DNA of 64,000 bases, from IMG/VR virus record IMGVR_UViG_3300045988_098382. One strand, given 5' to 3'. Every line of letters begins with the position of its first letter. The first letter of the stretch is position 1. The DNA is from a virus. The notes under the pieces were generated by a model that was given only the letters and a program-made list of their open reading frames with translations, was not told the DNA's origin and made no database searches. This document shows, in pieces, positions 18,039 to 58,640 of the stretch. Both the position numbers and the translations under genes were made by a program.

Positions 18039-18246
18039 AGATAGTTTTATTATAGTAGATAGCAGTATCACACTTATTGATATCAACTTTAATAGAATTT
18101 TTCTTACTATTTAATGAGTCTATTTTTCTTTCTAAAGTATCTGTAGGTATTACAGTGGTAGATTTAAATCCTTTATATAAAAAGATAGTAGCTCCTATAA
18201 TAGTAATTAAAACTAATATTAAAATTATTCTATCTAAAAGTTTCAT
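17914..18246 (-). CDS. Type II (N-in) membrane protein, i-spanin-like
   Basis: N-terminal TM IILILVLITIIGATIFLY. The rest is hydrophilic and predicted periplasmic. Overlaps the lipoprotein gene. Confidence 0.4.
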   Translation of the reverse strand: MKLLDRIILILVLITIIGATIFLYKGFKSTTVIPTDTLERKIDSLNSKKNSIKVDINKCDTAIYYNKTIYVKEKDNIIKQSPDSDMQFFTNYIQEVGRKLLIDTVSIKNN

Positions 18247-18668
18247 TAATCTTCTACTACCTTATTATATAAAGCTGTTTTTTCAGCTAAAGCTTTAGAT
18301 TTTTCATATTTATCTTTAGCTTTAGCATATGCGACACTATACTGCTCAGGATATTGTTTTACGTGATTAACTTCATTATCGAGTATGTGTTTTACAGTCT
18401 CAATATTAAGAAGTCCTGCTCTACCTATTAGTACATTGGTATTTCTATCACTAATACTTTTACCATAAGCAATTTTCTTACCAAGTTCATTGTTGTGTTT
18501 ATCTACCGGATTACAGAAAGATACTCCAAAACTAAGAATTCTAGTAGGATTTTCAAATATAGCACTTTCTCTAAGAACAGCGCATACTACAAAGTAATGA
18601 TCTTTACCTTCAAAGTCTACAAAACTACCTTCTCTGTAATCTACAAGTTTCTGTTTAGTATTTGTCAT
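18246..18668 (-). CDS. Hypothetical protein
   Basis: 140-aa ORF between the spanin-like pair and the putative holin. No lysozyme motif recognised. Confidence 0.45.
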   Translation of the reverse strand: MTNTKQKLVDYREGSFVDFEGKDHYFVVCAVLRESAIFENPTRILSFGVSFCNPVDKHNNELGKKIAYGKSISDRNTNVLIGRAGLLNIETVKHILDNEVNHVKQYPEQYSVAYAKAKDKYEKSKALAEKTALYNKVVED

Positions 18669-18934
18669 AATTTTTTAAATTTGGAATTATTAATAATATA
18701 ATCTAGAGGAGCTGATACTAAATCAATGGATTTTATAATTCTATATCCAATCTTTTTAGTAACTTGTACTCTCTCTTTAAGAGGTTTACTAGAAGATATA
18801 AACTTACTACCTAGCAATTCTTCTCTATCTTTATAGTGAGCATATGCTGTAAGTTCATAGACGAACATCTTAGAAACTGTAATGTCTCTATGATGTTCGT
18901 CTCTCCAAGTAGTTATAGGAATGGACTTAATCAT
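18665..18934 (-). CDS. Hypothetical protein
   Basis: 89-aa ORF. Confidence 0.4.
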   Translation of the reverse strand: MIKSIPITTWRDEHHRDITVSKMFVYELTAYAHYKDREELLGSKFISSSKPLKERVQVTKKIGYRIIKSIDLVSAPLDYIINNSKFKKL

Positions 18935-19248
18935 TCCTCCATCAAAGTAGTGTTGTTAGGAGTTTCTCCCACAATATCATATAATCTATGAAGTTCTTTT
19001 GTATATGAATCTAAATATTGTTGCATAGTAAAAGCCTTTTCAGGATTAGCTCTAGCTACTCTATATCTAGCAATTGATGCCATAGCTCCAGATAAGGTTA
19101 ATCCATATCCTGCTAAAGTAAGTTCCTCTCTAGCCTCTCTAGTTTTAGATTTGGCATTAATGGTTTTCATAATATATAAATCCCAATGAGGACAACTTTC
19201 ATCATTTGTTGAAGATCTTAATTCAAAATCAGATTCTTTAATTATCAT
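18931..19248 (-). CDS. Hypothetical protein
   Basis: 105-aa ORF. Confidence 0.4.
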   Translation of the reverse strand: MIIKESDFELRSSTNDESCPHWDLYIMKTINAKSKTREAREELTLAGYGLTLSGAMASIARYRVARANPEKAFTMQQYLDSYTKELHRLYDIVGETPNNTTLMEE

Positions 19249-19516
19249 AGATTACTTGGATCCAATACCACCAGGTCTTGTTGTTGCATTCTTTACTGTC
19301 TGAGGGAGCTTATCCCACCATACCTGCTTCTGACGAAGTCTTTCAAGCTTTGCCTTATACTTCATTTTAACTAGAATTGAAAATTAAAAGAAAATTAATC
19401 ATCTGTATAATATTAAAATTATCTAGGTAAAATACCATAATTTAGTCATAGACACGTCTAGAATAGTCTACAAACTTCTAAATTTAGAATCATGAACAAT
19501 TTATCACTCTAGAAAT

Positions 19517-20809: not shown

Positions 20810-21619
20810 TTAGATAACCTTAAACATTGTAACATTCTCAGGAAGATTATTCCAGTCTTTATAAGAGTTAGTAAACCATACGTGATTAAAGTTTTCTGAT
20901 AGATTCTTTATACCTTTAGGATTTACCATATGAGTGACTGCGATATTTAAACGCTCTTTAGGAATATTTAGAGCAGTAAATGCTTTAGTAATACCGCAAA
21001 ATGTACCACCACCATCACATAAATCATCAAGAATTAAAAGAGGTTTATCCTGTATATTTTCAGGATTATTTACTTTTATCTCTAAGATTTTTCCAGTAGT
21101 TAAATCCCGAACTTTACTACAAGTAATTGTAGTATTATTATATCGGAATTCATTTCTCTTTTCAGCTCCAGCATCGGGGAAAACTAATTGAAATTCTTTC
21201 CAAGTATTATTAGATGGATTTTTTTCAACGTAGAGAGGCATAAATTTAACTCCGAATTTAGGATCATAATAAACATCAGAATGAGGTTCTAGAATTTCAA
21301 TAGTCTCGGCATTACAATTTTTTAATATATTTAAGACTATTTTTAAAGTAAATGGTCTATTGAAATCCATTACTCTATCCATTCTCATACTCATTAAGTA
21401 ATAGATATTTAGTTTATATAGAACTTCATGTCTATCAAGAATATCTAAAACTTGCATAAGTATAAATAAATCCTCAGCATTAGTAACTCTACATTTAACT
21501 AATACTTGTTCCTTATGACTAAATTCTTCTAATGAAATTTGAACTTCTCCATCAGGAAATCTAGAGATAGAGTATTTAATATCACTATCTTCTAGACGCA
21601 CTAAATTTAATTGTTGCAT
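20810..21619 (-). CDS. Ribose-phosphate pyrophosphokinase-like enzyme (Prs family; possibly an ADP-ribose pyrophosphokinase of the phage NAD-reconstitution pathway)
   Basis: RFPDGE N-terminal motif. PRPP-binding loop LLILDDLCDGGGT (like ILVDDMIDTGGT). Confidence 0.7.
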   Translation of the reverse strand: MQQLNLVRLEDSDIKYSISRFPDGEVQISLEEFSHKEQVLVKCRVTNAEDLFILMQVLDILDRHEVLYKLNIYYLMSMRMDRVMDFNRPFTLKIVLNILKNCNAETIEILEPHSDVYYDPKFGVKFMPLYVEKNPSNNTWKEFQLVFPDAGAEKRNEFRYNNTTITCSKVRDLTTGKILEIKVNNPENIQDKPLLILDDLCDGGGTFCGITKAFTALNIPKERLNIAVTHMVNPKGIKNLSENFNHVWFTNSYKDWNNLPENVTMFKVI

Positions 21620-22101
21620 AATTTATAAATATAAAGAGTTATTGTTGAATCATTAGCAAAAAGTTCTTGGAGCATAGGATAAACTACTCCGTCCCAATCT
21701 CCTCCTGCTAATCCACATCCTAACTTATAAGGAATACCTATCTCTGTAATCTCATTATTTTTACAAAAGTCTTTTAAATCTAATAAAGCTTTTTTAAGAG
21801 CATCATAATCAGTATGCCTATTTTCATAAGGGGCTACTGATTCAGTAAAAGAATATTCTCCAAATAAATTAGCTACGAGATTAATAGGTTTATCCCCTGT
21901 TATACATATTTGACATTTTCCTAATAATTCTTTAGAATATTTAAGAAGTTTACAAAAATTAACATATTGTGTATATACCAAATTCCATTTATTTTTAATA
22001 GATTTAGCTATACCTGCCCCCATTACTCCCAAACAATTAGTTTGATGGGCTATAAGAGGTAAGTTTGATTGGAGTAAATCTCCATTAACAATTTCTATCA
22101 T
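21607..22101 (-). CDS. Macro-domain protein (ADP-ribose binding / hydrolase)
   Basis: IVNGDLLQSNLPLIAHQTNCLGVMGAGIAKSI matches macro-domain motifs (GD, N, G-x-G-[VI]-A). Confidence 0.65.
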   Translation of the reverse strand: MIEIVNGDLLQSNLPLIAHQTNCLGVMGAGIAKSIKNKWNLVYTQYVNFCKLLKYSKELLGKCQICITGDKPINLVANLFGEYSFTESVAPYENRHTDYDALKKALLDLKDFCKNNEITEIGIPYKLGCGLAGGDWDGVVYPMLQELFANDSTITLYIYKLCNN

Positions 22102-23651
22102 ACTAATGTTGAATTTACACGTTCACGAATCTCAGAAAGAGAATATTCTCTTACTAATTCTCCATTTACAAAGATTGTTTTAAGACAACCTTGTAGTTCT
22201 GCATCCTTAGTCTGCTGGTCATAAGCAACATACTTACCATTCTCTTTTTCAACTCTAATAAGACCTTTGAGAGAGTTCTTTGTTCCGTCGTCAGTCTTTG
22301 GATGCTTATAGATTTCTATAAGTCTACCATTAATTATACAAGCAGTTGCTTTAACTGCGAATCCCAAAGAATCACGAGACTTAAACTGATAAGTATAAGA
22401 TCCAATACCAAGAACAAGATTACAAGCTGCCATATGAGCATTCTCTAATCTAGCATAGATATCACGCTGACGTTCTAGAGTAATAGAATCTCCATAGAGC
22501 AAACCTACCTTGGTACTTGGATAACGATAATCATTTATAGTAGTATTCCATCCAAAGATTTTACCTAGCATATAATATGCCCCATAGTACTGACCTTCAG
22601 ATACTTCTACATAATGACTTTCATCATCATCCATAAATGGATTGAAATCACAGTAGTACTTACCTTCTTTCATAGCAGTATGATAGTGAGGATTTGTACG
22701 AAGACCACAAATAATGTCTACTGGATCACCACTATCAGGACGAATTACTACTCGACCATCACGCTTCATAATGTCTGCCTTGAGCTTAGGCAAGAATTTC
22801 TCAACTACCTGCCAGAAATCCCAAGTATCAGATACTATTGAGATAATACCTGTTGGATATAGATCATTAATAAGACGACGAAATGTTTCAATCTCATCAT
22901 CCTCACCTCCTGCACACATTACACTGTGTTCAGTTGCCGGAACAGTTGCAGCTACAAGTTCTTTAGTAACATCTGCATTATAATAATGCTCTACTGCTTC
23001 TATAGCTGGAATTGTTTCACTACCACAGAATGAAGTCATGTGAGCCATACCTGAAATAACAGATGCATCAAGTCCTGCCATACCTCTCATTGAAAAATCG
23101 TGGCAAGAGAAACCTAAATTTACATCTTCTGGGAATCCAGTCTTTTTAGCATGTTCCATAAGTCTCTTCTTATAAAGACGAGCACTTGTTGCAGAAGTAC
23201 AAGGAAGCCATAGAGTACAACTAATTAAAGTTTCCAAATAATTAGTCAACCAGAAGAAATTAGGAAGAGTATTCTTAATAGTCATCATAGGTACTCTTAT
23301 AGGACAAATAGAACCTTCAGGAAGAGCTTTAATTTCAATAGGAAGATATCCTAAATCATAAAGTTCTTCAATATGCTTTGTTCCAACCTGATTAATATCT
23401 ACAAAGTTACCTACACGATAAGCAAATTGCTTAATAGCTTCTTCCTTAGGAATAGCAAACCATTTGTTAAATTCCTCTATCAAATACTTCTTTACAAAAT
23501 ACTGAATACCAAATACTACAGAACCTTCTGTAGCTTCTGGGAAGTAACGATTACTTCTAGGAGTCCAGTTACTATAGACCATTTGTGTACCCTCTGGGTA
23601 CATACGATGATGACCAAGCTTGTAGCCATCAGTTGCATTAATAATTTCCAT
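22098..23651 (-). CDS. Nicotinamide phosphoribosyltransferase-like enzyme (NAMPT/NadV family)
   Basis: 517 aa. DGYKLGHH near the N-terminus, DFSMRG, GDSITLER: hallmark NAMPT-family motifs. Confidence 0.8.
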   Translation of the reverse strand: MEIINATDGYKLGHHRMYPEGTQMVYSNWTPRSNRYFPEATEGSVVFGIQYFVKKYLIEEFNKWFAIPKEEAIKQFAYRVGNFVDINQVGTKHIEELYDLGYLPIEIKALPEGSICPIRVPMMTIKNTLPNFFWLTNYLETLISCTLWLPCTSATSARLYKKRLMEHAKKTGFPEDVNLGFSCHDFSMRGMAGLDASVISGMAHMTSFCGSETIPAIEAVEHYYNADVTKELVAATVPATEHSVMCAGGEDDEIETFRRLINDLYPTGIISIVSDTWDFWQVVEKFLPKLKADIMKRDGRVVIRPDSGDPVDIICGLRTNPHYHTAMKEGKYYCDFNPFMDDDESHYVEVSEGQYYGAYYMLGKIFGWNTTINDYRYPSTKVGLLYGDSITLERQRDIYARLENAHMAACNLVLGIGSYTYQFKSRDSLGFAVKATACIINGRLIEIYKHPKTDDGTKNSLKGLIRVEKENGKYVAYDQQTKDAELQGCLKTIFVNGELVREYSLSEIRERVNSTLV

Positions 23652-26130: not shown

Positions 26131-26599
26131 AATATATAAAATTTTTAGAAAATGTATACAAACAAAAAAAGTCGAGCTTATTGCCCGACCAAACATCAGT
26201 AAGTACCCCTTTGGTACTTACAAATTAAATAATAAGATTAAATAATTGGAGGCATGTATAATCTAGAATATTGAGTAACATACCAAATCCAACCCTTCTT
26301 AAATGCTTTTAAAGTTCTTTTTAAAATTTTCATCATAATAAATCAAATTTAAAGTTTAACTTATAAAATATCTAGGAGGAGAGTTTTAAAAAAATTAAGA
26401 ATCCCAGGTAAATCGCCCCTGTTAGAGATAATCTTATGGTCTCTATTTTTATTATTTAGGATTCTATAGGAATGCAAAAAACCATCGAATCATTCCAGTT
26501 CGTAGGTTCTACGACACCTAATAGGCGAGTATGCATCGTTGAGAGGCACCCTATAAGTTACGTTGCTCCTGTAACTAGTATTCTAGAGCTTTGTTATTG

Positions 26600-26677
26600 T
26601 GCAGGATGTGGGAATCAAACCCACGCAAGCCTTCACATTGGAAGTGTGATGTGCACCTTCAGCTACACTAATCCTGC
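26600..26677 (-). tRNA. tRNA-Gly (anticodon UCC) with long D-loop and 8-nt variable region
   Basis: Perfect acceptor GCAGGAU/AUCCUGC. D-stem GUGU/GCAC. Anticodon stem UCACA/UGUGA, loop CUUCCAA. T-arm GUGGG-UUUGAUU-CCCAC. Confidence 0.6.
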
Positions 26678-26690
26678 ATTATTTAATAGT

Positions 26691-26764
26691 GGACCACGGT
26701 GGGACTCGAACCCACGACATCTACCTTGCAAAAGTAGCGTTCTAGCCAACTAAACTACGAGCCC
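26691..26764 (-). tRNA. tRNA-Ala-like (anticodon UGC) with two acceptor-stem mismatches
   Basis: D-arm GUUU/GAAC, anticodon loop UUUGCAA, T-arm GUGGG-UUCGAGU-CCCAC. Acceptor GGGCUCG vs CGUGGUC has G3-G70 and U5-U68 mispairs. Possible pseudo-tRNA. Confidence 0.45.
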
Positions 26765-26774
26765 AAATTGGAGA

Positions 26775-27251
26775 TTACTCTCCAGTTAATTGTTTTATTT
26801 TAAGTTTAGCTTGTGTTAATTTATAGATTAAATCAGATATAGTATTTTTATTATCTTTAAGTCGTTTTCTAAGATCTTTCATAGATAATTTCATACTATT
26901 AAAGTTCTTTAAATTATTTGCTATAGATTCTAATTCTTCAAAAGATTTAGTATCATCAAACAAAGATATATTAACTTTAGCTTGTAATTCTTTAATTTTA
27001 AGATTCTGCTTTTCAATCTTATTTTCTAAAGATTTAATCTTATTATTTAAAGAATCTATACTAAGTCCACTCTCTAATTCGTCTATATAAGACTCTAATT
27101 CTCCAACTTTTTGTTCTAAACCAGCATAATGCTTCTTTCTTTCAGCATCATACTCTTTAAAACTATTTATTTTTCTTTTTAAAACAGCTATAATAAAATC
27201 CTTTTTATCATAAAAGTTTGCGTCAGATTGATAATTAAAAGTTTTTTCCAT
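26775..27251 (-). CDS. Coiled-coil protein located inside the tRNA array
   Basis: 158 aa, heptad-rich (LEQKVGELESYIDELESG...KIKELQAK). Confidence 0.5.
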   Translation of the reverse strand: MEKTFNYQSDANFYDKKDFIIAVLKRKINSFKEYDAERKKHYAGLEQKVGELESYIDELESGLSIDSLNNKIKSLENKIEKQNLKIKELQAKVNISLFDDTKSFEELESIANNLKNFNSMKLSMKDLRKRLKDNKNTISDLIYKLTQAKLKIKQLTGE

Positions 27252-27272
27252 ATTATTTATTTTTTTAATTAG

Positions 27273-27356
27273 TTGTCTAGGAGAGATTCAAACTCCCGAA
27301 GCTAAATAGCGGCAAATTTACAGTTTGCTGTGTTTGACCACTTCACATACTAGACA
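27273..27356 (-). tRNA. tRNA-Tyr (GUA), class II with long variable arm
   Basis: Acceptor UGUCUAG/CUAGACA perfect. D-stem UGUG/CACA. Anticodon stem GCAAA/UUUGC, loop CUGUAAA. T-arm GGGAG-UUUGAAU-CUCUC. Confidence 0.8.
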
Positions 27357-27417
27357 ATTTTTAGTAAGATTAGCGTTATCCAATTCACACCACGTGGAGG
27401 TTCTTACTATGTGAATC

Positions 27418-27497
27418 TTGCAGAGGCGGGATTCGAACCACTTTGTGCGACCTCTTGGTTATGAGCCAAGCGAGATAACCAACTTCTCCACTCTGCG
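27418..27497 (-). tRNA. tRNA-Met-like (CAU) with C1-A72 mismatch (initiator-like) and a weak T-stem
   Basis: Acceptor CGCAGAG/CUCUGCA. D-stem GAGA/UCUC. Anticodon stem CUUGG/CCAAG, loop CUCAUAA. T-loop UUCGAAU present but the 5' T-stem half is imperfect. Confidence 0.45.
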
Positions 27498-27508
27498 ATA
27501 TTAAAAAG

Positions 27509-27580
27509 AGCTTCAAGTAGGATTCGAACCTACGACCTGCTCATTACAAGTGAGCTGCACTACCACTGTGCTATTGAAGC
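27509..27580 (-). tRNA. tRNA-Thr (UGU)
   Basis: Acceptor GCUUCAA/UUGAAGC. D GCAC/GUGC. Anticodon stem GCUCA/UGAGC, loop CUUGUAA. T-arm GUAGG-UUCGAAU-CCUAC. Confidence 0.85.
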
Positions 27581-27725
27581 TTAAATAAAAGCGAATATGG
27601 CATTAGACGGGCAAACTATCGTGACCATATTCTAATAATACATTGAGCTATCAGGCATACTCGTGGATTGCCACCGCTACCTCTAACAACCACCCAGTTA
27701 ACAACTAGGTGCTCTCCATTATTTG

Positions 27726-27802
27726 CGGAATATAAGGGACTCGAACCCTTAGTTTTACTAGAGTGACAGTCTAGTTCCCTTACCAACAGGGCTTAATACT
27801 CC
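27726..27802 (-). tRNA. tRNA-Asp (GUC)
   Basis: Acceptor GGAGUAU/AUAUUCC (one G-U). Anticodon stem CUAGA/UCUAG, loop CUGUCAC. T-arm AAGGG-UUCGAGU-CCCUU. Confidence 0.7.
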
Positions 27803-27813
27803 ATATATTTTTG

Positions 27814-27893
27814 CGCCTAGACTAGGATTCGAACCTAGGAACCTTTCGGGGCAAGTTAACAGCTTGCTGCCGTTGACCACTTGGCTATCTAGA
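27814..27893 (-). tRNA. tRNA with anticodon GUU (Asn-type) but a 12-nt variable region and a 3-bp D-stem
   Basis: Acceptor GUCUAGA/UCUAGGC. Anticodon stem GCAAG/CUUGC, loop CUGUUAA. Variable CCCGAAAGGUUC. T-arm CUAGG-UUCGAAU-CCUAG. Confidence 0.5.
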
Positions 27894-27906
27894 CGAAAGT
27901 CCTGAT

Positions 27907-28727: not shown

Positions 28728-29105
28728 TTAATTCTGAATCATAGCACGAAGCTCTTCAATAGATTTATTCTCAAGAGCTTCATCCTCTTTCTTTGCGATA
28801 AGCTCAGCAATACGTTTGTTACGAGCATCAATCTGTGCTCTATTAATATTATCTTTACGAGCCTTTAATTTAATATTAATTACATCTTTTACGATGCTGA
28901 AACGAAGTTCATCATCATTTTCTTCAGCTGGAAGCTCTTCAATGAAAGACTTCTTAGGAGCCTCACTAATTTTCTTATCTAGCATAATAGCTAAAGTGTT
29001 AAGATTCTGCAGAGATAAGTCGAACAAATCTTCTGTAGTAATCATACCCTTGTTTGTCTTAAAACGTAATTTTTTCTGTAATGCTTCTTTGTACATTGTT
29101 GTCAA
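28728..29105 (-). CDS. Hypothetical protein (charged, helical)
   Basis: 125-aa ORF. Confidence 0.45.
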   Translation of the reverse strand: MTTMYKEALQKKLRFKTNKGMITTEDLFDLSLQNLNTLAIMLDKKISEAPKKSFIEELPAEENDDELRFSIVKDVINIKLKARKDNINRAQIDARNKRIAELIAKKEDEALENKSIEELRAMIQN

Positions 29106-29108: not shown

Positions 29109-31142
29109 TTAAATGTTTACTTTATAAATTTTACCTGAATCTACTCTAACCATAATAGAGTTACGAGAAGTAGCTATAAATCCTAAACCACTCATCTGAT
29201 TATCATCATAAGGAGTTAAAGCTTTAGATGCTAATACTTCAAACACTCTCTTATGATTCTTAGTGAGTTCGTCTTTAAGATACTCATTAAAATATCCACG
29301 AACAGCATCTGGATTCTTACAATCCTTCAACATAAAGAAATAGTGCTTAGCACCTACTTTATTATTCCCCCAGTAATTTGGAGATAAGCATATAGCAGAT
29401 ACTTCAATGAAGTTCTGAGTCTTTACTCCCCAAATTTCTTTAGATGCTGTAGTACTACTCAAATGCTCCTTAGTAAAGACAACTTCACGTCCATTAGAAG
29501 TAAAATCTAATACTGAAACATCGCTTTTATCAGGAATGTCTTTGTTATATACATAAGTATGAACAACTCCATTGAGTTCTACTTCTACTTCAAATCCTAA
29601 ATCAATATTTTCAACTTTAGCAAAGTTGTTAACAAATACTTTATAAGTACCTGCTTTAGGAATTCCTGAGAAAATGATATTTTCTACAGCATCACGAGAA
29701 AACTTCTTAGGGAACTCACGTTCTGCAGAGACACTGCCTCCACAGGCATTCATATCTACATCAAGTAAGTTATGTTTGTTATTGTAGCAGACATGTCCAT
29801 AAGGACTTATCATATGTAAATCCAAATCATCGTAATTATACCAATGAAGAGAGATTCTCATATAGCCATCTACCTTACCTCCTACTTCTTTAACACGTTG
29901 TTTAATAGCATCAGAGATATTACCGTTATATGCCCAAGCAAAACCATTAGTCCATTTAAACATAGAAGGAGCTTCTTTATTAACTGGGGCAGTAAGAGTT
30001 ACTAAATTATTATTTAACTTGTTGTCAAAGAATAATTCAAGCTTACTAGCCTTAGAAACAATATTATTAAGAAACTCTTCCATAGTTGTTGGGATGGCAG
30101 TCTTCTCAAAATCTGTAGCAGCTTTGCTAGTATTAGAAGTTTCATTCATAAGAGAATCAAATCCTCCTAACATTCTCTTACGAGTTTCTCTATTTACAAA
30201 GATAACATCTTCAATAGATATATCTTCTACTTTAGCATGACGTCTTTCTAAAGAATCTTCATATCCTAATTCTACTACAGTTTTATAAGCATTTTCTACC
30301 TGGGTTTTGGTAATAATACCTTTAGGTCTCTTATAATTATAAGGAGCAACCATAGATTCAAACTTCTTAACTGAACTTTCAACATTGTTAGTATCAGTTA
30401 TGTCTTTAAGAAGCTGACCTATAGCACTATTAAGTATATGTGTTACAGGCTCTGGAAGTATACAAGAAGATATCCAAGCATAATTATCTAATTCAGAACC
30501 TTCCAAGTGCTTACTCTCTATTGTATCAAGAGCAGTCTTTAAAGCACTTACTTGGCGTAGATAAGTGTCACCTCTATAGAGGTTATCATCTGCAATTAAG
30601 TCTAATACTGTCTGTACAGAACTATAATTAATTTCAGATAAAGTTCTTACCCATACATCGTGTGAAGATTTAGCACCTGCACGAAATGTTGGAGTTTGAG
30701 ACTTATCCATAATTAAATTACGTGTAGGAGTAGCATAAAAATGGTTCCAAGTAATTATTTCTTTAGAAGGTAGTATCTGCTGATTACATTTACAACCCAT
30801 TGTAGTCTCTTCTGTAACAAATGCATTTCTAATTTTAGTATTTTTAAGCACTTGTAACATATTGTCTACAACTTTAGCAAACATTCCTTCAGCGTGAACA
30901 TCCTCCCAGTAAGAATGTATTTTATAGTTCTCATCTACAGAAACTAATGCTCCATAGCGAGTAATGAAATGTTTACAATTTACACAGTTAAATTCTTGAC
31001 GTACGGCTCCTTCAGGGAAAGATTCCATATAAGCCATCCATAAAAATTCTTTTTGAGTGTCAAGAATAAAGAGATGTTTGTTCTCTTTAATCATCTTATT
31101 ACATGCTTCTGTAACAAGATTTCTAAAATCTAAGTATTCCAT
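29109..31142 (-). CDS. Large hypothetical protein (677 aa), first gene of a flotillin/AAA+ neighbourhood
   Basis: Long uninterrupted ORF with several Cys pairs (FNCVNCKHF, GCKCNQ). No family recognised by eye. Confidence 0.55.
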   Translation of the reverse strand: MEYLDFRNLVTEACNKMIKENKHLFILDTQKEFLWMAYMESFPEGAVRQEFNCVNCKHFITRYGALVSVDENYKIHSYWEDVHAEGMFAKVVDNMLQVLKNTKIRNAFVTEETTMGCKCNQQILPSKEIITWNHFYATPTRNLIMDKSQTPTFRAGAKSSHDVWVRTLSEINYSSVQTVLDLIADDNLYRGDTYLRQVSALKTALDTIESKHLEGSELDNYAWISSCILPEPVTHILNSAIGQLLKDITDTNNVESSVKKFESMVAPYNYKRPKGIITKTQVENAYKTVVELGYEDSLERRHAKVEDISIEDVIFVNRETRKRMLGGFDSLMNETSNTSKAATDFEKTAIPTTMEEFLNNIVSKASKLELFFDNKLNNNLVTLTAPVNKEAPSMFKWTNGFAWAYNGNISDAIKQRVKEVGGKVDGYMRISLHWYNYDDLDLHMISPYGHVCYNNKHNLLDVDMNACGGSVSAEREFPKKFSRDAVENIIFSGIPKAGTYKVFVNNFAKVENIDLGFEVEVELNGVVHTYVYNKDIPDKSDVSVLDFTSNGREVVFTKEHLSSTTASKEIWGVKTQNFIEVSAICLSPNYWGNNKVGAKHYFFMLKDCKNPDAVRGYFNEYLKDELTKNHKRVFEVLASKALTPYDDNQMSGLGFIATSRNSIMVRVDSGKIYKVNI

Positions 31143-31159
31143 AAAATTTTTAAAAGTTA

Positions 31160-31200
31160 GAAAAAGAGGGAGAGATTATTCCCTCCCTCTGTGATACTTA
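31160..31200 (-). terminator. Rho-independent terminator downstream of the flotillin gene
   Basis: AGAGGGA-(loop)-UCCCUCU hairpin followed by UUUUUCU on the minus strand. Confidence 0.5.
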
Positions 31201-31204
31201 ATGT

Positions 31205-32758
31205 TTACACATTTACGTTGGTGTTCTCTACGTCGCCATTAACGTTAACATTCTTGTTAACCTTAGCTTCAATAGTGTTAGCCTTCATAATTTCTGCCAT
31301 ATCTACACCTGTGGCATCTTTTACCATGTCACGAGTTTGTTTGATAACAGCAGGTACATTACCTGAAATACCAGAAGCCTCAGTACCATTGGTACCATAA
31401 ACTGTCATACTACCAATCTTACTCATAGGCTCTGCAATATGCTTAGCCATATCAGGAAGAACATCCTTATAAAGATCTGAGATAGTATCAATTATAGCCG
31501 CTGGACCATACTTACTGTAAGCCTCAGCCTTCTTCTGCATAGCTTCAGCCTCTGCAAGACCTTTAGCCTTAACACCTTCAGCTTCTGCTAAAAGCTTAGC
31601 TTTAATACCTGCAGCCTCAGCAGTCATAGTCTGTTGAGTAGCATATGCTTCAGCTTCACCCTTAGCACGAATACCTGCTGCTTCCTGCTCCTGAGAATAA
31701 CGATTAGCTTCAGCTTTAGCTTTTACAGCCTTAGCAGTCTGCTCTGCCTTATAAGCCTCAGCCTCAGCCTCACGCTTCTGCTTCTCCAAAGCTGCCTGAG
31801 CATCAATCTCTGTCTGATACTTATCAGCATCAGCCTTAGCATTTACATCTGCAAGATACTCATTCTGCTTAATCTTAATCTTCTCCTCAGACAAAGTCTG
31901 CTCTTTACGAGTCTTCTCAATATCAGCATCTACAGTCTTGATATTAATAGTCTTCTGTTGCTCCTGCTGCTGAATTTTATATGCAGCATCAGATTCAGCC
32001 TTCTTAATATCAGACAATCTCTTCAGTTCAGCTCTCTTAATAGCTAACTCATTATTACGTTCAGCAATAATGGTATCAGCTTTTACTCGTGCTTCATTAG
32101 CCTCATTGTCAGCTTCAGCCTGAGCCTTAGCTACATCTCTATCAGCATTAGCACGGGTAATTTTAGCATTCTTCTGAATAGCTGCTGTATTATCAGCACC
32201 CAAATCACGGATCAAGCCCTTCTCATCAGTAATATTCTGAATATTGCAAGACAAAATCTCAAGACCTAACTTAGCCATATCAGGAGCTGCCTTCTTCTGA
32301 ATTTCATCAGAGAATGCATCTCTATCAGTGTTAATTTTAATCAAGTCAAGAGAGCCTACTACTTCACGCATATTACCTTCTAAAGAATCTTTCACCTGAG
32401 CAGCAATCTGAACAGAATTCATATTCAAGAAGTTCTTAGCTGCAAGTCTAGTGCCTTCTGTATCAGGTTTTACCCTAACTTTACATACGGCATCTACCAT
32501 TACATCCAAGAAATCATGAGTAGGAACTGGCTGTGAAGTCTTAACATCAACTGTTACTTGACCAAGATATACTTTATCCAATCGTTCAAGTACAGGAATT
32601 TTTACTCCACCATTACCGATAAGTACTCGTGGCTCCTTACGAAAACCTGAAAGAATGTATGCCATCGAAGGAGGAGCTTTAACATACATTGTAGCAATAA
32701 TAACAAGCAGTACAATAATAGCGACTGCGACAACACCAATAAGAACTAAATGTTCCAT
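31205..32758 (-). CDS. Flotillin-like SPFH (band-7) domain protein
   Basis: N-terminal TM (LVLIGVVAVAIIVLLVIIA). SPFH core. Long Ala/Glu/Lys coiled coil (AEAEAYKAEQTAKAVKAKAEA...) typical of flotillin/YqiK. Confidence 0.8.
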   Translation of the reverse strand: MEHLVLIGVVAVAIIVLLVIIATMYVKAPPSMAYILSGFRKEPRVLIGNGGVKIPVLERLDKVYLGQVTVDVKTSQPVPTHDFLDVMVDAVCKVRVKPDTEGTRLAAKNFLNMNSVQIAAQVKDSLEGNMREVVGSLDLIKINTDRDAFSDEIQKKAAPDMAKLGLEILSCNIQNITDEKGLIRDLGADNTAAIQKNAKITRANADRDVAKAQAEADNEANEARVKADTIIAERNNELAIKRAELKRLSDIKKAESDAAYKIQQQEQQKTINIKTVDADIEKTRKEQTLSEEKIKIKQNEYLADVNAKADADKYQTEIDAQAALEKQKREAEAEAYKAEQTAKAVKAKAEANRYSQEQEAAGIRAKGEAEAYATQQTMTAEAAGIKAKLLAEAEGVKAKGLAEAEAMQKKAEAYSKYGPAAIIDTISDLYKDVLPDMAKHIAEPMSKIGSMTVYGTNGTEASGISGNVPAVIKQTRDMVKDATGVDMAEIMKANTIEAKVNKNVNVNGDVENTNVNV

Positions 32759-32837
32759 AAATTTGTAAATGTTTAAATAATAAAAATTAAATATCTAAGA
32801 ACTAACTGATGTTAATTCCAAGGGGGCATTTATTTTT

Positions 32838-33992
32838 TTATAATTTATAATTTACAAGACCTGTAGCTTTACTTGTAGAATAGCAACTATTAATTAAATA
32901 TATTCTAATATATCCATAATCAGTCATAGTTACTACATACTTTTCTGCAACATTTACCATTAATATACGATCATCTACAAAATAGTCTCCAGTCTCTAGA
33001 TACTTCAATTCTTTATCTTCAGTAGTAGAACCATAATCCTCATTGAACTTAGAAGCCCATTCGTTATAGAATTCTTTCTCTTCATTGGAACGATTTTCCC
33101 AATCTTTCTTTTTAAGTTCTTTATACTTATTATAAATTTTCAATAAATTATTTAGATTTTCAGGAGTAAATTTCAAGTCACAATGTCTAACTTGTACTTC
33201 TCTATATAAATAAGTAAATCTAGAGAACTCAATATTAAAGGTTTCTTTAATATCAGGAAGAGATTCTACTCCATGAATATTAATTTCAGTTGCTATAGCC
33301 TTAATTAAGTCTATAGTAATAATATTCATAGAATGAGTTAACTCTATAATCTTTTCTATAGCAGTTTTATCTTCTAAGATATCGTTAAGAATTTCTCTAG
33401 TAACCTCCTCTGAAAGATTATTGAAAGACTTTTTATATCTTATTCTAGAAGGTCTACCAAGAAGATTTGGATCTACATTTAACTCATTAGTAGTAAGTAA
33501 AAATACCTTACGATAAATAGAGTTATAAGTACCATCCATGAAAGAAAGAACATCTGAAGAATTTTTAAATTCTTTCTCATACTCATCAAAGAAGAAGATA
33601 CAGTCAAAATCAATGGATGTAGATAAATATTTTATTAATTTACTATTAGTATCACCACCCATTGATTGTACTAAGATTACAGGAAGCTGTAAACGATTAC
33701 AAAGTTCCTTTGCGGTAACTGTTTTACCAGTTCCTTTGATTCCATCTAGCAGAACACCTAAATTTCCTGTAGTGTTCTCATATGTCTTTAAGACATAATC
33801 AATAAATTTTTGGTTTAGACCATACAGTTTGTAATCAAACGTAAAAGACTCAGCGATTTTACTTAAATAAAATCCAGTCATTGAGAGTTTTACTTCATAA
33901 ATACCTTTCGGTAATCCTTCAGGATGAGATACTGTTGTAGCACTACCCTGACTAAAAATGTTACCATCTTGTAACCAAATTTGTTTACTCAT
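32838..33992 (-). CDS. AAA+ ATPase
   Basis: Walker A GVLLDGIKGTGKT and Walker B IFFFDEYEK. Classic-clade AAA spacing. Confidence 0.7.
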   Translation of the reverse strand: MSKQIWLQDGNIFSQGSATTVSHPEGLPKGIYEVKLSMTGFYLSKIAESFTFDYKLYGLNQKFIDYVLKTYENTTGNLGVLLDGIKGTGKTVTAKELCNRLQLPVILVQSMGGDTNSKLIKYLSTSIDFDCIFFFDEYEKEFKNSSDVLSFMDGTYNSIYRKVFLLTTNELNVDPNLLGRPSRIRYKKSFNNLSEEVTREILNDILEDKTAIEKIIELTHSMNIITIDLIKAIATEINIHGVESLPDIKETFNIEFSRFTYLYREVQVRHCDLKFTPENLNNLLKIYNKYKELKKKDWENRSNEEKEFYNEWASKFNEDYGSTTEDKELKYLETGDYFVDDRILMVNVAEKYVVTMTDYGYIRIYLINSCYSTSKATGLVNYKL

Positions 33993-34097
33993 TTTGATAA
34001 ATGTTTAATAATTACTTTAATAAATTTATAAGAATGTCTATGTTGTGTAACATATCATCAATTATTTTAATAGAGTTATTAATGTATTCTTCCATAT

Positions 34098-34955
34098 TTA
34101 TTTTATAGCTCTTAACTTTTTATATTCTTCAAATACTTTATCTTCAGCTTCTTTCCCCCACATAGTATATATCAATACTCCAAAAGGGCAATATTGAAAT
34201 ATTATTGGATCTACAGGGTGAGAAATTATAACTACTTTCTCTTGTAGATTTGATTTTGGACAAGCTATGAACATTTCATCTCTACGTATATAATGCACTT
34301 CTAAACCTACTGCTTCAGCCCATTTCTCATTTTCAAATCCTTCAATATAGTTCATACTATATACAGTACCATGACCTGGAACAATATTAAAGTTATAATT
34401 CAGGCATTCACGAATATCAGAATCACTCTTATCACTGGTATTATATATTTTTCTAATTTTCACCATATTTTTGTTTGTATCTAATTTCACATAACCAGAG
34501 TAATGATCCATCTTATATTTTATATTAGATAATTCTTTTAAATTACCGTTAGGTATAACTCCAGTAAATTGTTCAAGACGTCCAATAGACAATCTATATT
34601 TACGACATAATTTATAAAAAGAAGTTCTACTAACTAATATAACAGAATCTCCTAAAAACTCATTCACAGTTTTTATATAATTTAACAACTCACGAGCTTT
34701 TATAATATTTCTATTATATGCATCAATATCACGCATTCTGTCTTTTAAGAATTTAGCATTTGCACTATTGCCTAATCCTAACCCACATAATCTAGCATAT
34801 TCTCCAGACAAATCATTAGATTTTAAAGGAGTTAATGCCGCACTTTCTGAAACCCCTACTAAATCTATCGCTAACTTAGATAATTCTTTATCTATAGTTA
34901 TTAAAGGCTTCTGTTCTTTTTTGTTTTCTTTTAAAAAATTACTAAAAATTCCCAT
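34098..34955 (-). CDS. Hypothetical protein
   Basis: 285-aa ORF. Confidence 0.45.
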   Translation of the reverse strand: MGIFSNFLKENKKEQKPLITIDKELSKLAIDLVGVSESAALTPLKSNDLSGEYARLCGLGLGNSANAKFLKDRMRDIDAYNRNIIKARELLNYIKTVNEFLGDSVILVSRTSFYKLCRKYRLSIGRLEQFTGVIPNGNLKELSNIKYKMDHYSGYVKLDTNKNMVKIRKIYNTSDKSDSDIRECLNYNFNIVPGHGTVYSMNYIEGFENEKWAEAVGLEVHYIRRDEMFIACPKSNLQEKVVIISHPVDPIIFQYCPFGVLIYTMWGKEAEDKVFEEYKKLRAIK

Positions 34956-36905: not shown

Positions 36906-37161
36906 ATTTTTACCATATTATGTAAAGTCCAGGATCTTCATTACCTAAATAAGATGTTTTAAATCCTAAACTATAAAAATAATCAAAATAAGCCTTTTCA
37001 GGCTTCATTTCCTTATGTATCCCCCCAAATTGGCTGCATTTGTTTGGTATATCCTTCTTAATCTAACTAATAAACAACATTAGTTAGTCAATATTCTTTT
37101 ACCAGTCGGGTGCAACCCATGCGTCTAAGTATACTTAGAATACAAACCAACCCGATTTTCG

Positions 37162-37242
37162 TCGGAATAGTGGGACTCGAACCCACACGCATTGCTGCAT
37201 ATGCTCCTAGGGCATACGTGTCTGCCATTCCACCATACTCCG
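37162..37242 (-). tRNA. tRNA-Leu (UAG), class II
   Basis: Acceptor CGGAGUA/UAUUCCG (one G-U). Anticodon stem UAUGC/GCAUA, loop CCUAGGA. Long variable arm. T-arm GUGGG-UUCGAGU-CCCAC. Confidence 0.75.
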
Positions 37243-37996: not shown

Positions 37997-38214
37997 TTGT
38001 ATGTATTAGCGTCTAAATCAATAGCAGACATACCTGCTTCATACTCGCTATAGATAACTATCTTATGAGGTCTTTTCTTAGAATCATACATAATTTCTAG
38101 AGTTTTACGATAGTAAGCCTGGTCTTTACGACCCGTATAGGTATTAGGATAATTATAACTATTAACTAAAGTAACAATTAATAATAATCCTATAATTGAT
38201 AATACTTTTTTCAT
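37993..38214 (-). CDS. Small secreted protein
   Basis: Signal peptide MKKVLSIIGLLLIVTLVNS. Confidence 0.4.
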   Translation of the reverse strand: MKKVLSIIGLLLIVTLVNSYNYPNTYTGRKDQAYYRKTLEIMYDSKKRPHKIVIYSEYEAGMSAIDLDANTYK

Positions 38215-38651
38215 AATTTTATATATTTACCTGTATATTTAATACGACTAGATACTATTACCCCTAAAGGATTTACAAAATAAATAGAACCTTTTGGAAT
38301 AATAAATGTGGCTAAATAAATAGGATTATTTATACCAAGTAGCTCTTTATGAGTTCCTAAAACTATAGCTTTACATATAAATCCATGAAGATTTGGATCA
38401 CATAAAGAATCAAGAACAAAGTTTACAGATTCATAACTATAATAACCTTCTTTAATGGTTAAAAAACCACTATGAGGATTACTATGTAATACTAATTTTA
38501 ACTCAGATGGTTCTGTATCTTTATAATAAGTAAAACCTGTAAATTCTGAAACACAGAGTTTTTTACTAGCATTTTTAACTACCTTATACACATTAATATC
38601 TGCTTCAGCTTTATAAGCTTTTAAATTATTAGCATAACATGCCCAACACAT
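38211..38651 (-). CDS. Hypothetical protein, MCW-paralog family member 2
   Basis: MCWACY...VYKVV ... KYTGKYIKL. Paralog of neighbours. Confidence 0.5.
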   Translation of the reverse strand: MCWACYANNLKAYKAEADINVYKVVKNASKKLCVSEFTGFTYYKDTEPSELKLVLHSNPHSGFLTIKEGYYSYESVNFVLDSLCDPNLHGFICKAIVLGTHKELLGINNPIYLATFIIPKGSIYFVNPLGVIVSSRIKYTGKYIKL

Positions 38652-38655: not shown

Positions 38656-39111
38656 TTACAATTTTAAATGTTTACCAGTATACATTATTTGATTTGAAAC
38701 AATTTCGCCTTTCCAATTTACAGCATACTGAGAACCCTTAGGAATTACAAATGTAGCTACATAATAAGGATTATTAATCCTTATAGGCATCAACAAATTA
38801 CCTGCAATGATTCCCTTGTATTCAGGTGTTGAACATGGGTCATAAGGTTTCTTAAGTGTAAAACGTATCTTAGTATAACTATGATAAGCCTTTGTAATAT
38901 AAATTAAATCAGTAGTACAAAAAGCACTACCAAGACTTGATTCTTCAAGTTCTATAGCATCCATTGCATATCTTATATTAGTCTCATATATAAACCCTTG
39001 AATAAGGGATTTACATGACAGCTTATCAGCATCTGATACTATTTTATACACTTCAATATCTCTATCAGCAATTTGTAAATCAAAACTTCTTGTATTTTCA
39101 ATCCAACACAT
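38656..39111 (-). CDS. Hypothetical protein, MCW-paralog family member 3
   Basis: MCWIEN...VYKIV ... MYTGKHLKL. Paralog of neighbours. Confidence 0.5.
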   Translation of the reverse strand: MCWIENTRSFDLQIADRDIEVYKIVSDADKLSCKSLIQGFIYETNIRYAMDAIELEESSLGSAFCTTDLIYITKAYHSYTKIRFTLKKPYDPCSTPEYKGIIAGNLLMPIRINNPYYVATFVIPKGSQYAVNWKGEIVSNQIMYTGKHLKL

Positions 39112-39637: not shown

Positions 39638-39729
39638 ATGTTAATGTGTTATTTAATTAAACAATAAAAGAGCCTAACTAGATTAACTAATTAGACTCTT
39701 TAAAAAGAATAATATGATAAAAGAAATAG

Positions 39730-39803
39730 TGGGGAAGTACAGGCTTGAACTGTAGACCTTCTGATTATGAGTCAGCTGCTCTAACCGACTGAGCTACAAC
39801 CCC
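39730..39803 (-). tRNA. tRNA-Met (CAU, elongator-like) with two U-U mismatches in the acceptor stem
   Basis: D-arm GCUC-AGUCGGUUA-GAGC, anticodon loop CUCAUAA, T-arm UACAG-UUCAAGC-CUGUA. Acceptor GGGGUUG vs CUUCCCC has U5-U68 and U6-U67 mispairs. Confidence 0.55.
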
Positions 39804-43029: not shown

Positions 43030-43415
43030 ATTACATATTCTTAAAATTAGAAGGATATAGAGGAGTTAAACCTCTTCTTTTGGGGTCAAATCCCAACGTG
43101 ACTGTCGTTACACCAATATCCCTTGTATCTAATAGATAGCACTGTAGTGCTACCATTACACCATAGCCCATTATTAAAACTTTCTATCTTCACAGACCGA
43201 AAGTTTTCTAACTCTTTAACGTTTTTACAATCCGCTGATTGTAATATAATAATTCAAACAATTTCTATGAATTAGTAGCACTAGCGATACTCGAAATCGC
43301 CTTTGGATCTTGAAAGAATCCCGTCCTGACCAGCTAGACGATAGTGCCAAGTAGATTCTCTATCTATCACAGACTAAGAATTCCAAGAAAAAGTAATATT
43401 AAGATAAATTCCATG

Positions 43416-43489
43416 CGCACCCTGTAGGATTCGAACCTACGACTTTCTGACTAATAGCCAGACGTTCTAACCAACTGAACTAAGAGTAC
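43416..43489 (-). tRNA. tRNA with unusual anticodon loop CUAUUAG (formal anticodon AUU; a 1-nt register shift would give UUA)
   Basis: Acceptor GUACUCU/AGGGUGC (two G-U). D GUUC/GAAC. Anticodon stem UCUGG/UCAGA. T-arm GUAGG-UUCGAAU-CCUAC. Confidence 0.5.
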
Positions 43490-43561
43490 AAATCTCTACC
43501 TATTTATCGCAAACCGGTAGAGTACCAATTTAAAACGAATATTCTTTTAAGAGAAGTTGTG

Positions 43562-43634
43562 TTCCCTACGAGATTCGGACTCGTGACCCACAGATTAAAA
43601 ATCTGTTGCTCTACCAACTGAGCTAAGAGAACTA
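43562..43634 (-). tRNA. tRNA-Lys (UUU)
   Basis: Acceptor GUUCUCU/AGGGAAC. D GCUC/GAGC. Anticodon stem ACAGA/UCUGU, loop UUUUUAA. T-arm ACGAG-UCCGAAU-CUCGU. Confidence 0.85.
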
Positions 43635-43641
43635 ATATGCA

Positions 43642-43729
43642 CACGGAGTAGGATTCGAACCCACGCTGTTCAACTTTCGTCTCTATAGGTTTTGGAGACC
43701 TACCCTTTCGACCACTCAGGCATCCGTAT
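43642..43729 (-). tRNA. Class-II-like tRNA (Tyr/Ser-like D-arm, ~20-nt variable arm) carrying anticodon CCA
   Basis: Acceptor AUACGGA/UCCGUGU. D-region CCUGAGUGGUCGAAAGGG. Anticodon stem UAGGU/ACCUA, loop CUCCAAA. T-arm GUGGG-UUCGAAU-CCUAC. Confidence 0.45.
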
Positions 43730-43733
43730 ATAG

Positions 43734-43805
43734 TGGAGATACGTGGAATCGAACCACAATCTCGGGATTTTCAGTCCCGCGCTCTGACCTTCTAAGCTAT
43801 ATCTC
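43734..43805 (-). tRNA. tRNA-Phe (GAA)
   Basis: Acceptor GGAGAUA/UAUCUCC perfect. Anticodon stem CGGGA/UCCCG, loop CUGAAAA. T-arm UGUGG-UUCGAUU-CCACG. Confidence 0.85.
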
Positions 43806-43904
43806 CGTATCCCACATTTCTTTAAGGAGAATAGTGGTAACACCTACCTATACTAATAGATTTATTAGTCAGGATTATTATACACATTAACAATATATCA
43901 AATT

Positions 43905-43990
43905 GAATTTGTACGGTAGAAAGGATTCGAACCAATGACCTTCTCGAAATGACCTATTATAAAAAGAGATGCTCTAACCACTGAGCTACT
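43905..43990 (-). ncRNA. tRNA-like gene with perfect acceptor and D-arm but a 4-bp anticodon stem enclosing a 20-nt loop and a degenerate T-stem
   Basis: Acceptor ACGGUAG/CUACCGU. D GCUC-AGUGGUUA-GAGC. UCUC-(20 nt)-GAGA. T region UGGUUCGAAUCCUUU. Same architecture as 44426..44506. Confidence 0.35.
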
Positions 43991-44050
43991 ACCGTAAGTA
44001 CTAGTTTATATCGGAAAACTAGTAAAACGTTAACACATTATTATGGAAAC

Positions 44051-44410
44051 TTAAAAGCCAAATAAATATATTACATCTTTAGATGGACTAAGACTTATAT
44101 ATGGAATATTATTTTCTTCAGTAATTGTAACGATATAATATTTATTAGTATTAATATCTTTACACATATGATATTCCATATCTCCTTGTCTTTTAGAAGA
44201 AGTAATCTTTAATACCATCTTACCCCATTTATTATTACTAAAAGTAATAGTTTTTCTAGATTCATTATAAACTACTGAGGTTTTAATGTAAAATGGGGCA
44301 CTCCATTCACCATCTTTATAAACAGTGATAGAACCATAATTAAACGCATGAGCTATTGTAGTTAATACAATAAAACTCATTAATAAAATAATCTTTTTCA
44401 TATTACTCAA
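44051..44410 (-). CDS. Secreted hypothetical protein
   Basis: Signal peptide MSNMKKIILLMSFIVLTTIAHA. Confidence 0.45.
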   Translation of the reverse strand: MSNMKKIILLMSFIVLTTIAHAFNYGSITVYKDGEWSAPFYIKTSVVYNESRKTITFSNNKWGKMVLKITSSKRQGDMEYHMCKDINTNKYYIVTITEENNIPYISLSPSKDVIYLFGF

Positions 44411-44425
44411 TCTTTTTAATATTAG

Positions 44426-44506
44426 TACGGAGTAAAGGATTCGAACCAGTATAACCTCTCTATGAATTGTGGAAGTGAGGTGCTCTAGCCATTAAGCTAA
44501 CTCCGC
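44426..44506 (-). ncRNA. tRNA-like gene, paralog of 43905..43990 (20-nt expanded anticodon region)
   Basis: Acceptor GCGGAGU/ACUCCGU. D GCUU-AAUGGCUA-GAGC. CCUC-(20 nt)-GAGG. T region UGGUUCGAAUCCUUU. Confidence 0.35.
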
Positions 44507-44511
44507 ATATG

Positions 44512-44584
44512 TGGTCCTGGTGAGAATCTAACTCACGACCCGGATTTTAGAAGAATCCTGCTCTATACACTGAGCTACAGGACC
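44512..44584 (-). tRNA. tRNA-Arg (UCU) with noncanonical T-loop UUAGAUU
   Basis: Acceptor GGUCCUG/CAGGACC perfect. D GCUC/GAGC. Anticodon stem GGAUU/AAUCC, loop CUUCUAA. T-stem GUGAG/CUCAC. Confidence 0.75.
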
Positions 44585-58638: not shown

Positions 58639-58640
58639 AT

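Follow-up and report, generated by a model that had tools for sequence, protein, structure and literature searches.

Does a flotillin gene carried by a phage form a dedicated membrane system with the genes on either side of it, or is it a captured host gene set into an older phage module? This question is raised by a gene cluster in IMG/VR virus record IMGVR_UViG_3300045988_098382, analysed as a stretch of 64,000 nucleotides (the window) with about 30% GC and with most of its genes on the minus strand. Three minus-strand open reading frames (ORFs) were confirmed at the coordinates first assigned to them from the sequence alone (the original prediction): an AAA ATPase gene of 384 amino acids (aa) at 32838–33992, a 517-aa flotillin gene at 31205–32758, and a gene for a 677-aa protein at 29109–31142, here named DUF8224 after its family. 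A fourth gene, encoding a 122-aa protein at 28728–29096 on the same strand, was overlooked in the original prediction. The reading given slightly better than even weight here is that the locus is a mosaic, in which a host-derived flotillin has been inserted into a conserved phage module, and not a demonstrated SPFH + AAA machine. On this reading the locus belongs to the early, accessory part of the genome of a large gut phage, whose host is probably a member of the Bacteroidales.

The 517-aa protein is a membrane-anchored flotillin of the FloT/YuaG type, as had been proposed. It matches Band_7 (PF01145) over residues 29–206 (8e-21, 75.3 bits against a cut-off of 23.6) and Flot (PF15975) over residues 380–478 (4.5e-11, 43.4 bits against a cut-off of 27), while its matches in the PDB include human flotillin-1 (1e-42, over residues 25–336) and flotillin-2 (2e-38). 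A single transmembrane segment occupies residues 4–22 (LVLIGVVAVAIIVLLVIIA; hydropathy 3.57), and an Ala/Glu-rich coiled coil follows the SPFH domain. This architecture of N-terminal anchor, SPFH/Band_7 domain, Ala/Glu coiled coil and Flot domain is shared with bacterial FloT/YuaG and with eukaryotic flotillin-1/2. Unlike these cellular flotillins, the protein is phage-encoded, has an Asn/Val-rich C-terminal tail, and scores below the NCBIfam cut-off for FloT (NF058507; 2e-75, 254.5 bits against 700), and thus belongs with the flotillins without being an equivalog of B. subtilis FloT. No NfeD/YuaF-like partner gene is present beside it.

The closest non-phage relatives of the flotillin belong to the Bacteroidales/Paludibacteraceae (63–68% identity), and one of them is encoded on a bacterial contig of 254 kb, where its neighbours are NADH-dehydrogenase genes and a gene for a type IX secretion system (T9SS)-tailed protein. 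Its viral counterparts are more distant, at 53% identity to the flotillin of locus L027 (comparison loci are numbered with L), 40% to those of L094 and L099, and 26% to a 603-aa SPFH protein in L006. The GC content of the gene (0.40) and that of its third codon positions (GC3, 0.29) are the maxima of the neighbourhood, where most genes have a GC3 of 0.14–0.21 and the 122-aa gene reaches 0.28. Since the protein is closer to Bacteroidales flotillins than to phage SPFH proteins, and since its GC is elevated, the gene is regarded as host-derived; the evidence points to a capture separate from those of the SPFH genes in other lineages.

Flotillins were expected to be rare in phages, and this expectation holds: tblastn found matches in 11 of 50,697 INPHARED records, mostly as unannotated fragments, and a literature search combining flotillin with “phage-encoded” returned nothing relevant. 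A scan of IMG/VR with the flotillin gave 17 loci, 16 of which represent the lineage of the window. The seventeenth, L027, has neither the AAA gene nor DUF8224 within 10 kb of its flotillin, which is surrounded by NMNAT-like, phosphoesterase and isochorismatase genes. The annotated flotillins of Vibrio phage KIT04 (gp048) and phage csAssE-Sib likewise have neither gene nearby. Like the flotillin gene of the window, these three are the single flotillin genes of large virulent phages and are placed among early or auxiliary-metabolic genes; they differ from it in lacking a neighbouring PHROG 2376 AAA or DUF8224 gene, and they are 25–53% identical to it. Adjacency of a flotillin to DUF8224 is found in one narrow lineage only. 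NAD-salvage genes are present within about 10 kb of the flotillin in KIT04, L027 and the window; those of the window encode a PRPP-synthetase-like protein (20810–21619) and NAMPT (22098–23651) and lie about 8 kb from the flotillin gene.

The 677-aa protein, originally described as an ORFan of no recognisable family, proved to be a full-length member of a large one. It matches phrog_1735 with an E-value of 7.9e-200 over residues 1–675 and profile positions 2–671 of 673, and PF26675 (DUF8224) is precomputed on every one of its full-length homologues, whose identities span 94% to 41%. The latter entry is recent and was not included in the Pfam copy scanned, which accounts for the zero Pfam matches of the protein itself. 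Of the 50,697 phage records searched by tblastn, 522 contain DUF8224, at roughly 20–40% identity; 460 of these have matches to at least 80% of its length, and most full-length matches are 32–38% identical. Its carriers include the Ackermannviridae (ViI-like phages of Salmonella, Klebsiella and Escherichia), Bastille-like Bacillus phages and phiCbK-like Caulobacter phages, together with phages of Alteromonas, Roseobacter, Microcystis and Cellulophaga. An exhaustive HMMER scan found 3,510 clusters at 50% identity with E≤1e-3 and 1,103 with E≤1e-30, and the best 150 representatives are 643–754 aa long and, in all but one case, align over nearly their full length. Length and architecture are fixed, and the proteins from phages of Proteobacteria, Firmicutes, Bacteroidota and Cyanobacteria share 30–45% identity. 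The homologues are annotated as “hypothetical” in every case seen, and literature searches for PF26675 and DUF8224 found no papers.

Within DUF8224, an N-terminal alpha/beta domain is followed by a helical region (approximately residues 150–265), a TerD-like beta-sandwich (approximately 425–560) and a conserved C-terminal domain. The cysteine pair noticed originally is a CxxC motif (C53, C56) in the N-terminal domain that is invariant across 113 homologues, as is H134. The beta-sandwich has the TerD fold and contains the invariant residues D439, D441, D461, D463, E487 and N488, an acidic cluster that probably forms a divalent-cation or ligand-binding site. The resemblance is one of fold only. 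TerD (PF02342) was matched by none of 52 DUF8224 members at E≤5, a profile of the domain retrieved no TerD from PDB sequences, and the only other Pfam signals were weak DUF2135 matches in 3 of the 52; a homology at the sequence level is therefore not supported. DUF8224 also differs from the Ter system in having its TerD-like domain embedded in a 677-aa protein, and no TerB, TerC or TelA gene is present in the stretch examined, from 26 to 37 kb of the window. The whole DUF8224 profile has no match in the PDB; the N-terminal, helical and C-terminal domains have no solved relative, and the BFVD matches are uncharacterised phage proteins only, including proteins of jumbo phages and of one giant virus. 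Weak PARP_reg matches over the helical region were unsupported by the fold search. Hydropathy indicates no transmembrane segment. A portal, terminase or other structural identity was dismissed, as no such match was found in Pfam, PHROG or the PDB, and the gene is surrounded by early, replication and nucleotide-metabolism genes.

The 122-aa gene is the near-obligate conserved partner of DUF8224. Its ATG, at 29096, is 12 nt past the DUF8224 stop codon (the ORF listing begins instead at a TTG at 29105). In a neighbourhood survey of 80 IMG/VR loci with DUF8224, scanned with hidden Markov models over a 10-kb range, the gene adjoins DUF8224 in 77, with the order of the two reversed in 2 loci; in the remaining 3 no partner is seen next to DUF8224, which lies near a contig end in at least two of them. 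A homologue follows DUF8224 in the isolates PhaxI, Bc431v3, CcrBL10 and Bcp1 and in the metagenomic relatives L004–L008, so that the order in the window is that of the Ackermannviridae, Bastille-like and phiCbK-like phages and of many uncultivated phages. The protein matches phrog_2018 (3e-33), of which, like its partner in PHROG 1735, it is a full-length member, and is 39% identical to PhaxI gp089. It is helical and soluble with no transmembrane segment, and gave no match in Pfam, PADLOC or, by profile search, the PDB. By hydropathy, the flotillin is the sole membrane protein among the flotillin, AAA, DUF8224 and 122-aa proteins. Compared with other DUF8224 loci, the architecture of the pair in the window is identical, and what distinguishes it is the flotillin and AAA genes as upstream neighbours. 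A conserved third gene of about 135 aa upstream of DUF8224 was also considered and discarded, the upstream genes of PhaxI, Bc431v3, CcrBL10 and L007 being mutually unrelated. In Escherichia phage PhaxI the nearby gp086 (L001, 4229–5434) encodes a 5-hydroxymethyldeoxyuridine (5-hmdU) DNA kinase (HMUDK_hel, 6e-85) of the thymidine-hypermodification pathway, and ViI-like phages carry DUF8224 two genes downstream of this kinase.

The identification of the 384-aa protein as a classic-clade AAA+ ATPase was borne out. It matches PF00004 (2e-10, 41.6 bits against a cut-off of 21.2), phrog_2376 (3e-51) and, at 6e-4, the D2 domain of p97, with Walker A (GIKGTGKT) and Walker B (FFFDEYE) aligned. The second region of homology, TTN...GRPSR (TTNELNVDPNLLGRPSRIRY), with its sensor-1 Asn and arginine fingers, is our own reading of the p97 alignment. 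An N-terminal domain precedes the AAA core (approximately residues 76–250), which is followed by a C-terminal extension. The protein is soluble: no transmembrane segment was found (maximum hydropathy 1.25), nor was a Peptidase_M41 match, and PADLOC gave only P-loop-level similarity to IetA. In the window the gene is uninterrupted. In six close relatives (L004, L015, L019, L020, L021 and L028) an insert of 0.33–1.3 kb interrupts it immediately behind Walker A (GTGK), as seen at 4822–6005 in L004 (MT835492.1), and the long form of this insert contains a 220-aa LAGLIDADG-type ORF. Most probably the insert is a self-splicing intron, which may or may not include a homing endonuclease; an Rfam scan of the L004 insert matched no group I intron model.

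As a neighbour of the DUF8224 pair, the AAA gene is recurrent but dispensable. PHROG 2376 occurs in 391 phage records, mostly of Escherichia (Stephanstirmvirinae-like), Enterococcus, Bacillus, Staphylococcus, Lactobacillus and Lactococcus phages, and its host genera overlap with those of DUF8224 only in Bacillus, Escherichia and Salmonella, the listed Escherichia carriers being different phage groups. In some phages the two are contiguous. Bastille-like Bacillus phages (Bcp1, JBP901, PBC6, TsarBomba, BCP78 and others) carry DUF8224, the small partner and the AAA gene adjacent and in series, and the AAA gene lies immediately upstream of DUF8224 in L006 (DUF8224 60% identical, gap of 1 nt) and L097 (39% identical, gap of 21 nt). 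In total, it adjoins the pair in four lineages with differing gene order, counting that of the window, where the flotillin gene intervenes, and the AAA, DUF8224 and 122-aa proteins diverge in parallel across six lineages. In the L055 group the AAA gene is 8–10 kb upstream. Its dispensability follows from PhaxI (Ackermannviridae) and the phiCbK-like CcrBL10, which have DUF8224 and its partner with no AAA gene alongside, and from the single Enterococcus phage inspected, where the AAA gene stands isolated among tRNA genes. PhaxI gp086 was rejected as an AAA homologue on the grounds that it has no BLASTP similarity and is the 5-hmdU DNA kinase.

Two congeneric Bacillus phages differ at this slot in otherwise collinear DNA. 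Bc431v3 (L002, 5979–8473) has DUF8224 and its partner without the AAA gene, and Deep Blue (L009, 4918–6029) has the AAA gene without the pair. That the two are alternative cassettes at a hotspot was rejected: most Bastille-like phages carry both, adjacent to one another, so the two phages represent reciprocal deletions from an arrangement that most of their relatives retain.

The original prediction proposed to look for conserved synteny of SPFH and AAA genes in other phages. Such synteny exists in part: the AAA gene recurs with the DUF8224 pair in some lineages, and AAA and SPFH genes co-occur with DUF8224 in relatives down to about 60% identity; the adjacency of the flotillin is confined to its own lineage, where the order AAA–flotillin–DUF8224–122-aa is kept in 16 of 16 IMG/VR loci. 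Together with the non-structural identity of the 677-aa protein, the co-occurrence in relatives runs counter to the outcome originally named as refuting the idea. Elsewhere in the survey, SPFH genes of other kinds are found near DUF8224. A flotillin of about 490 aa is encoded 2–6 kb downstream in five loci (L094, L099, L100, L107 and L110), a 278-aa SPFH protein 6–7 kb downstream in more than 12 loci of the 42% lineage (L047–L067), and the 603-aa SPFH protein upstream of the AAA gene in L006. These three types and the flotillin of the window are mutually non-orthologous, and outside the lineage of the window 3 to 12 unrelated genes separate the SPFH gene from DUF8224. No SPFH gene was found nearby at 49 of the 80 IMG/VR loci, nor in PhaxI, Bc431v3, CcrBL10 or Bcp1. 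All SPFH-bearing DUF8224 loci come from gut viromes, and their accessory genes are clustered. One of these loci, L055, contains a phage-borne pair of envelope genes (17236–19514), in which the gene for a 338-aa OmpA-like outer-membrane beta-barrel protein precedes that for a 275-aa SPFH protein by about 440 bp.

Between the flotillin and DUF8224 genes, where the original prediction placed a terminator, a hairpin followed by a T-run is indeed present on the minus strand (31190–31165; 11 pairs, 6 of them GC, and a loop of 4). It begins 14 nt past the flotillin stop codon and ends 22 nt ahead of the DUF8224 ATG. The stem is kept through paired substitutions in L004, L005, L014, L021 and L022: L004 and L021 combine G-to-A with C-to-T changes at paired positions, and L005 and L022 have a re-built stem. 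Its GC-containing stem, U-run and conservation mark it as a predicted intrinsic terminator. In the 8-kb stretch around the cluster, 10 terminator-like sites were counted against 2.1 expected.

How such a mosaic might work can be sketched from homology and gene order. At its core, DUF8224 and the helical protein of about 122 aa would form a complex, likely cytoplasmic given that both proteins are soluble, and the fixed architecture and wide conservation of DUF8224 suggest that it acts on a target common to all of these infections. Its TerD-like domain may serve as a cation or ligand site. The AAA protein would be a facultative third member, possibly a hexameric remodelling motor working on or with the pair, and either the motor or the pair could be lost while the other stays. 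The flotillin is a captured host gene that has been placed, in the lineage of the window, between the AAA and DUF8224 genes, with a predicted terminator hairpin of its own at the end. If it behaves as cellular flotillins do, the N-terminal anchor would insert into the host inner membrane, where SPFH cages or microdomains could form. Overproduction of flotillin in Bacillus subtilis disturbs cell division and stabilises FtsH (PMC3892786); extra flotillin dosage in an infected cell might likewise alter membrane organisation and raft-associated proteins such as FtsH, with the possible effect of maintaining membrane function while infection proceeds or of changing the entry of rival phages. A role in superinfection exclusion has been proposed for the Ter components of phages (PMC7824862), and Bacteroides jumbo phages carry a host-like terD next to a pspA-like gene (PMC12880540); both cases are precedents for the borrowing of membrane-stress genes by gut phages.

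Several observations sit uneasily with the mosaic. Four non-orthologous SPFH types within 10 kb of DUF8224 exceed what a one-off capture would produce and may reflect a functional link; as a suggestive sign only, this recurrence keeps the looser idea of an SPFH association alive. The gap of 22 nt between the hairpin and the DUF8224 ATG is too small for a promoter, so transcription of the flotillin unit may read through into DUF8224, which would make the two co-expressed. The picture of a core with a facultative motor is drawn wholly from synteny. Between the window and the 78% sub-lineage (L005/L022), moreover, the flotillin is 91% identical, against 69% for the AAA protein and 78% for DUF8224; it is either under strong selection or recently exchanged, or else simply a slower-evolving protein. 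The first two of these points lend some substance to a different and rather unlikely explanation, namely that the locus is a genuine membrane system, in which an SPFH scaffold on the inner membrane would concentrate or regulate a complex of the AAA ATPase and TerD-like DUF8224 for protection, compartmentalisation or superinfection exclusion. Besides the recurrence of SPFH types in separate gut-phage lineages and the missing room for a promoter, such a system would account for the gene order kept in all 16 loci of the lineage, and the TerD-like fold of DUF8224 agrees with the exclusion proposal for Ter proteins (PMC7824862) and with the terD–pspA pairing (PMC12880540). Its models by analogy would be Ter/PspA-type membrane stress modules and HflK/C caging the AAA protease FtsH.

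HflK/HflC–FtsH is an SPFH cage around an AAA protease, and the window likewise encodes an SPFH protein and a classic-clade AAA protein side by side. The likeness goes little further: the AAA protein of the window has neither the protease domain (M41) nor a transmembrane segment, unlike FtsH, there is one flotillin in place of an HflK/HflC pair, and the pairing is found in one lineage only. No transmembrane segment or amphipathic anchor was detected in the AAA, DUF8224 or 122-aa proteins. Most DUF8224 loci are without a nearby SPFH gene; where one occurs outside the lineage of the window, unrelated genes intervene, and in L055 it pairs with the OmpA-like porin instead. The flotillins of KIT04, csAssE-Sib and L027 manage without AAA or DUF8224 genes nearby, and the SPFH-bearing loci, all from gut viromes, may belong to related phages in which accessory genes cluster. 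Of the dedicated SPFH + AAA membrane module originally proposed, there remains the co-occurrence of AAA and SPFH genes with DUF8224 in relatives; against it stand a flotillin that is a recent, host-derived addition adjacent in a single lineage, a conserved hairpin that separates it from DUF8224, and three partners devoid of membrane segments. The further claim, that SPFH, AAA and ORFan form a unique system, does not hold. The opposite view, improbable to the same degree, denies any functional link: the genes would be unrelated accessory genes in a plastic early region of tRNAs, morons and homing elements, and the AAA–DUF8224 adjacency an old inherited order. The region is indeed plastic, as seen in the insert of 0.3–1.3 kb in the AAA gene of six relatives and in a further gene, orf285, that is variably present; each family is widespread without the others; Bc431v3 and Deep Blue have each lost one part and are still viable isolates; and terminator-like hairpins punctuate the cluster. 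Passive retention is nevertheless unlikely to explain why the AAA gene adjoins the pair in both gene orders, in Firmicutes phages and gut phages whose DUF8224 proteins are 35–45% identical, or why the gaps are as tiny as 1 nt (L006) and 21 nt (L097). A bolder proposal, for which the chances seem poorer still, would see in DUF8224 and its small partner, in many cases joined by the AAA of PHROG 2376, a widespread undescribed phage machine acting at or on the cell membrane in superinfection exclusion or membrane maintenance; gut phages would have independently captured at least three to four host SPFH scaffolds as enhancers of this machine, and the TerD-like domain would be its sensor of Ca2+ or another ligand.

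Each part of the cluster is a fresh member of a known or catalogued family, and it is the DUF8224 pair that holds the greater interest. Present in about 1% of deposited phage genomes, it ranks with the more widely distributed of the uncharacterised gene pairs in phages. The architecture of DUF8224 varies very little, and beyond the one TerD-like domain no solved structure resembles it. Tractable hosts and natural deletion variants (Bc431v3 and Deep Blue) make the function of DUF8224 directly testable. The flotillin, of host origin and carried by what is probably a Bacteroidales phage, also extends the set of membrane-stress and membrane-organisation genes known from gut phages (TerD, PspA-like), and the recurrence of SPFH genes near DUF8224 provides a concrete, testable hypothesis.

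The cluster is bounded on both sides by further minus-strand terminator-like hairpins. Upstream, a 285-aa ORF (orf285; 34098–34955) precedes the AAA gene and is itself preceded by a hairpin at 35011–34980 (14 pairs, 5 of them GC, then a T-run), which is the probable 5′ boundary of a transcription unit comprising orf285, the AAA gene and the flotillin gene. The product of orf285 has no match in Pfam, PHROG, NCBIfam or PADLOC, and the gene is a variable accessory one: by tblastn it is present in L012, L014, L015 and L026 and not in L004, so that near-identical relatives differ in its presence. Downstream of the 122-aa gene, a hairpin at 28600–28575 (11 pairs, 6 of them GC, then a T-run) is the probable 3′ boundary of the unit formed by DUF8224 and its partner. 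An exact 11-mer, TTAAACATTTA, has two copies in the window, both on the minus strand (33998–34008 and 32766–32776) and located 5–7 nt upstream of the AAA and flotillin starts, respectively. Copies with one mismatch (29110–29120 and 38665–38675) precede the 122-aa gene and an ORF at 38211–38651, each at a distance of 13 nt. The motif may be a translation-initiation or promoter element; across the window it is not enriched (18 matches against 11.4 expected, one mismatch allowed).

The window contains 18 tRNA genes, grouped in several arrays on either side of the cluster (26599–27894, 37161–37242, 39729–39803 and 43050–44584). One, on the plus strand at 53332–53405, is a suppressor-type tRNA with the anticodon CTA, and a second of this type, on the minus strand at 43911–43995, has the anticodon TTA. 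An 8-kb stretch of the minus strand (54679–62391), with the CTA tRNA just upstream of it, contains no ORF of at least 150 aa in the standard code. When TAG is read as a sense codon, the same stretch yields ORFs of 955, 308, 205, 277, 225 and 272 aa; it looks like a TAG-recoded gene block, probably of late genes, while the region of the flotillin cluster uses the standard code.

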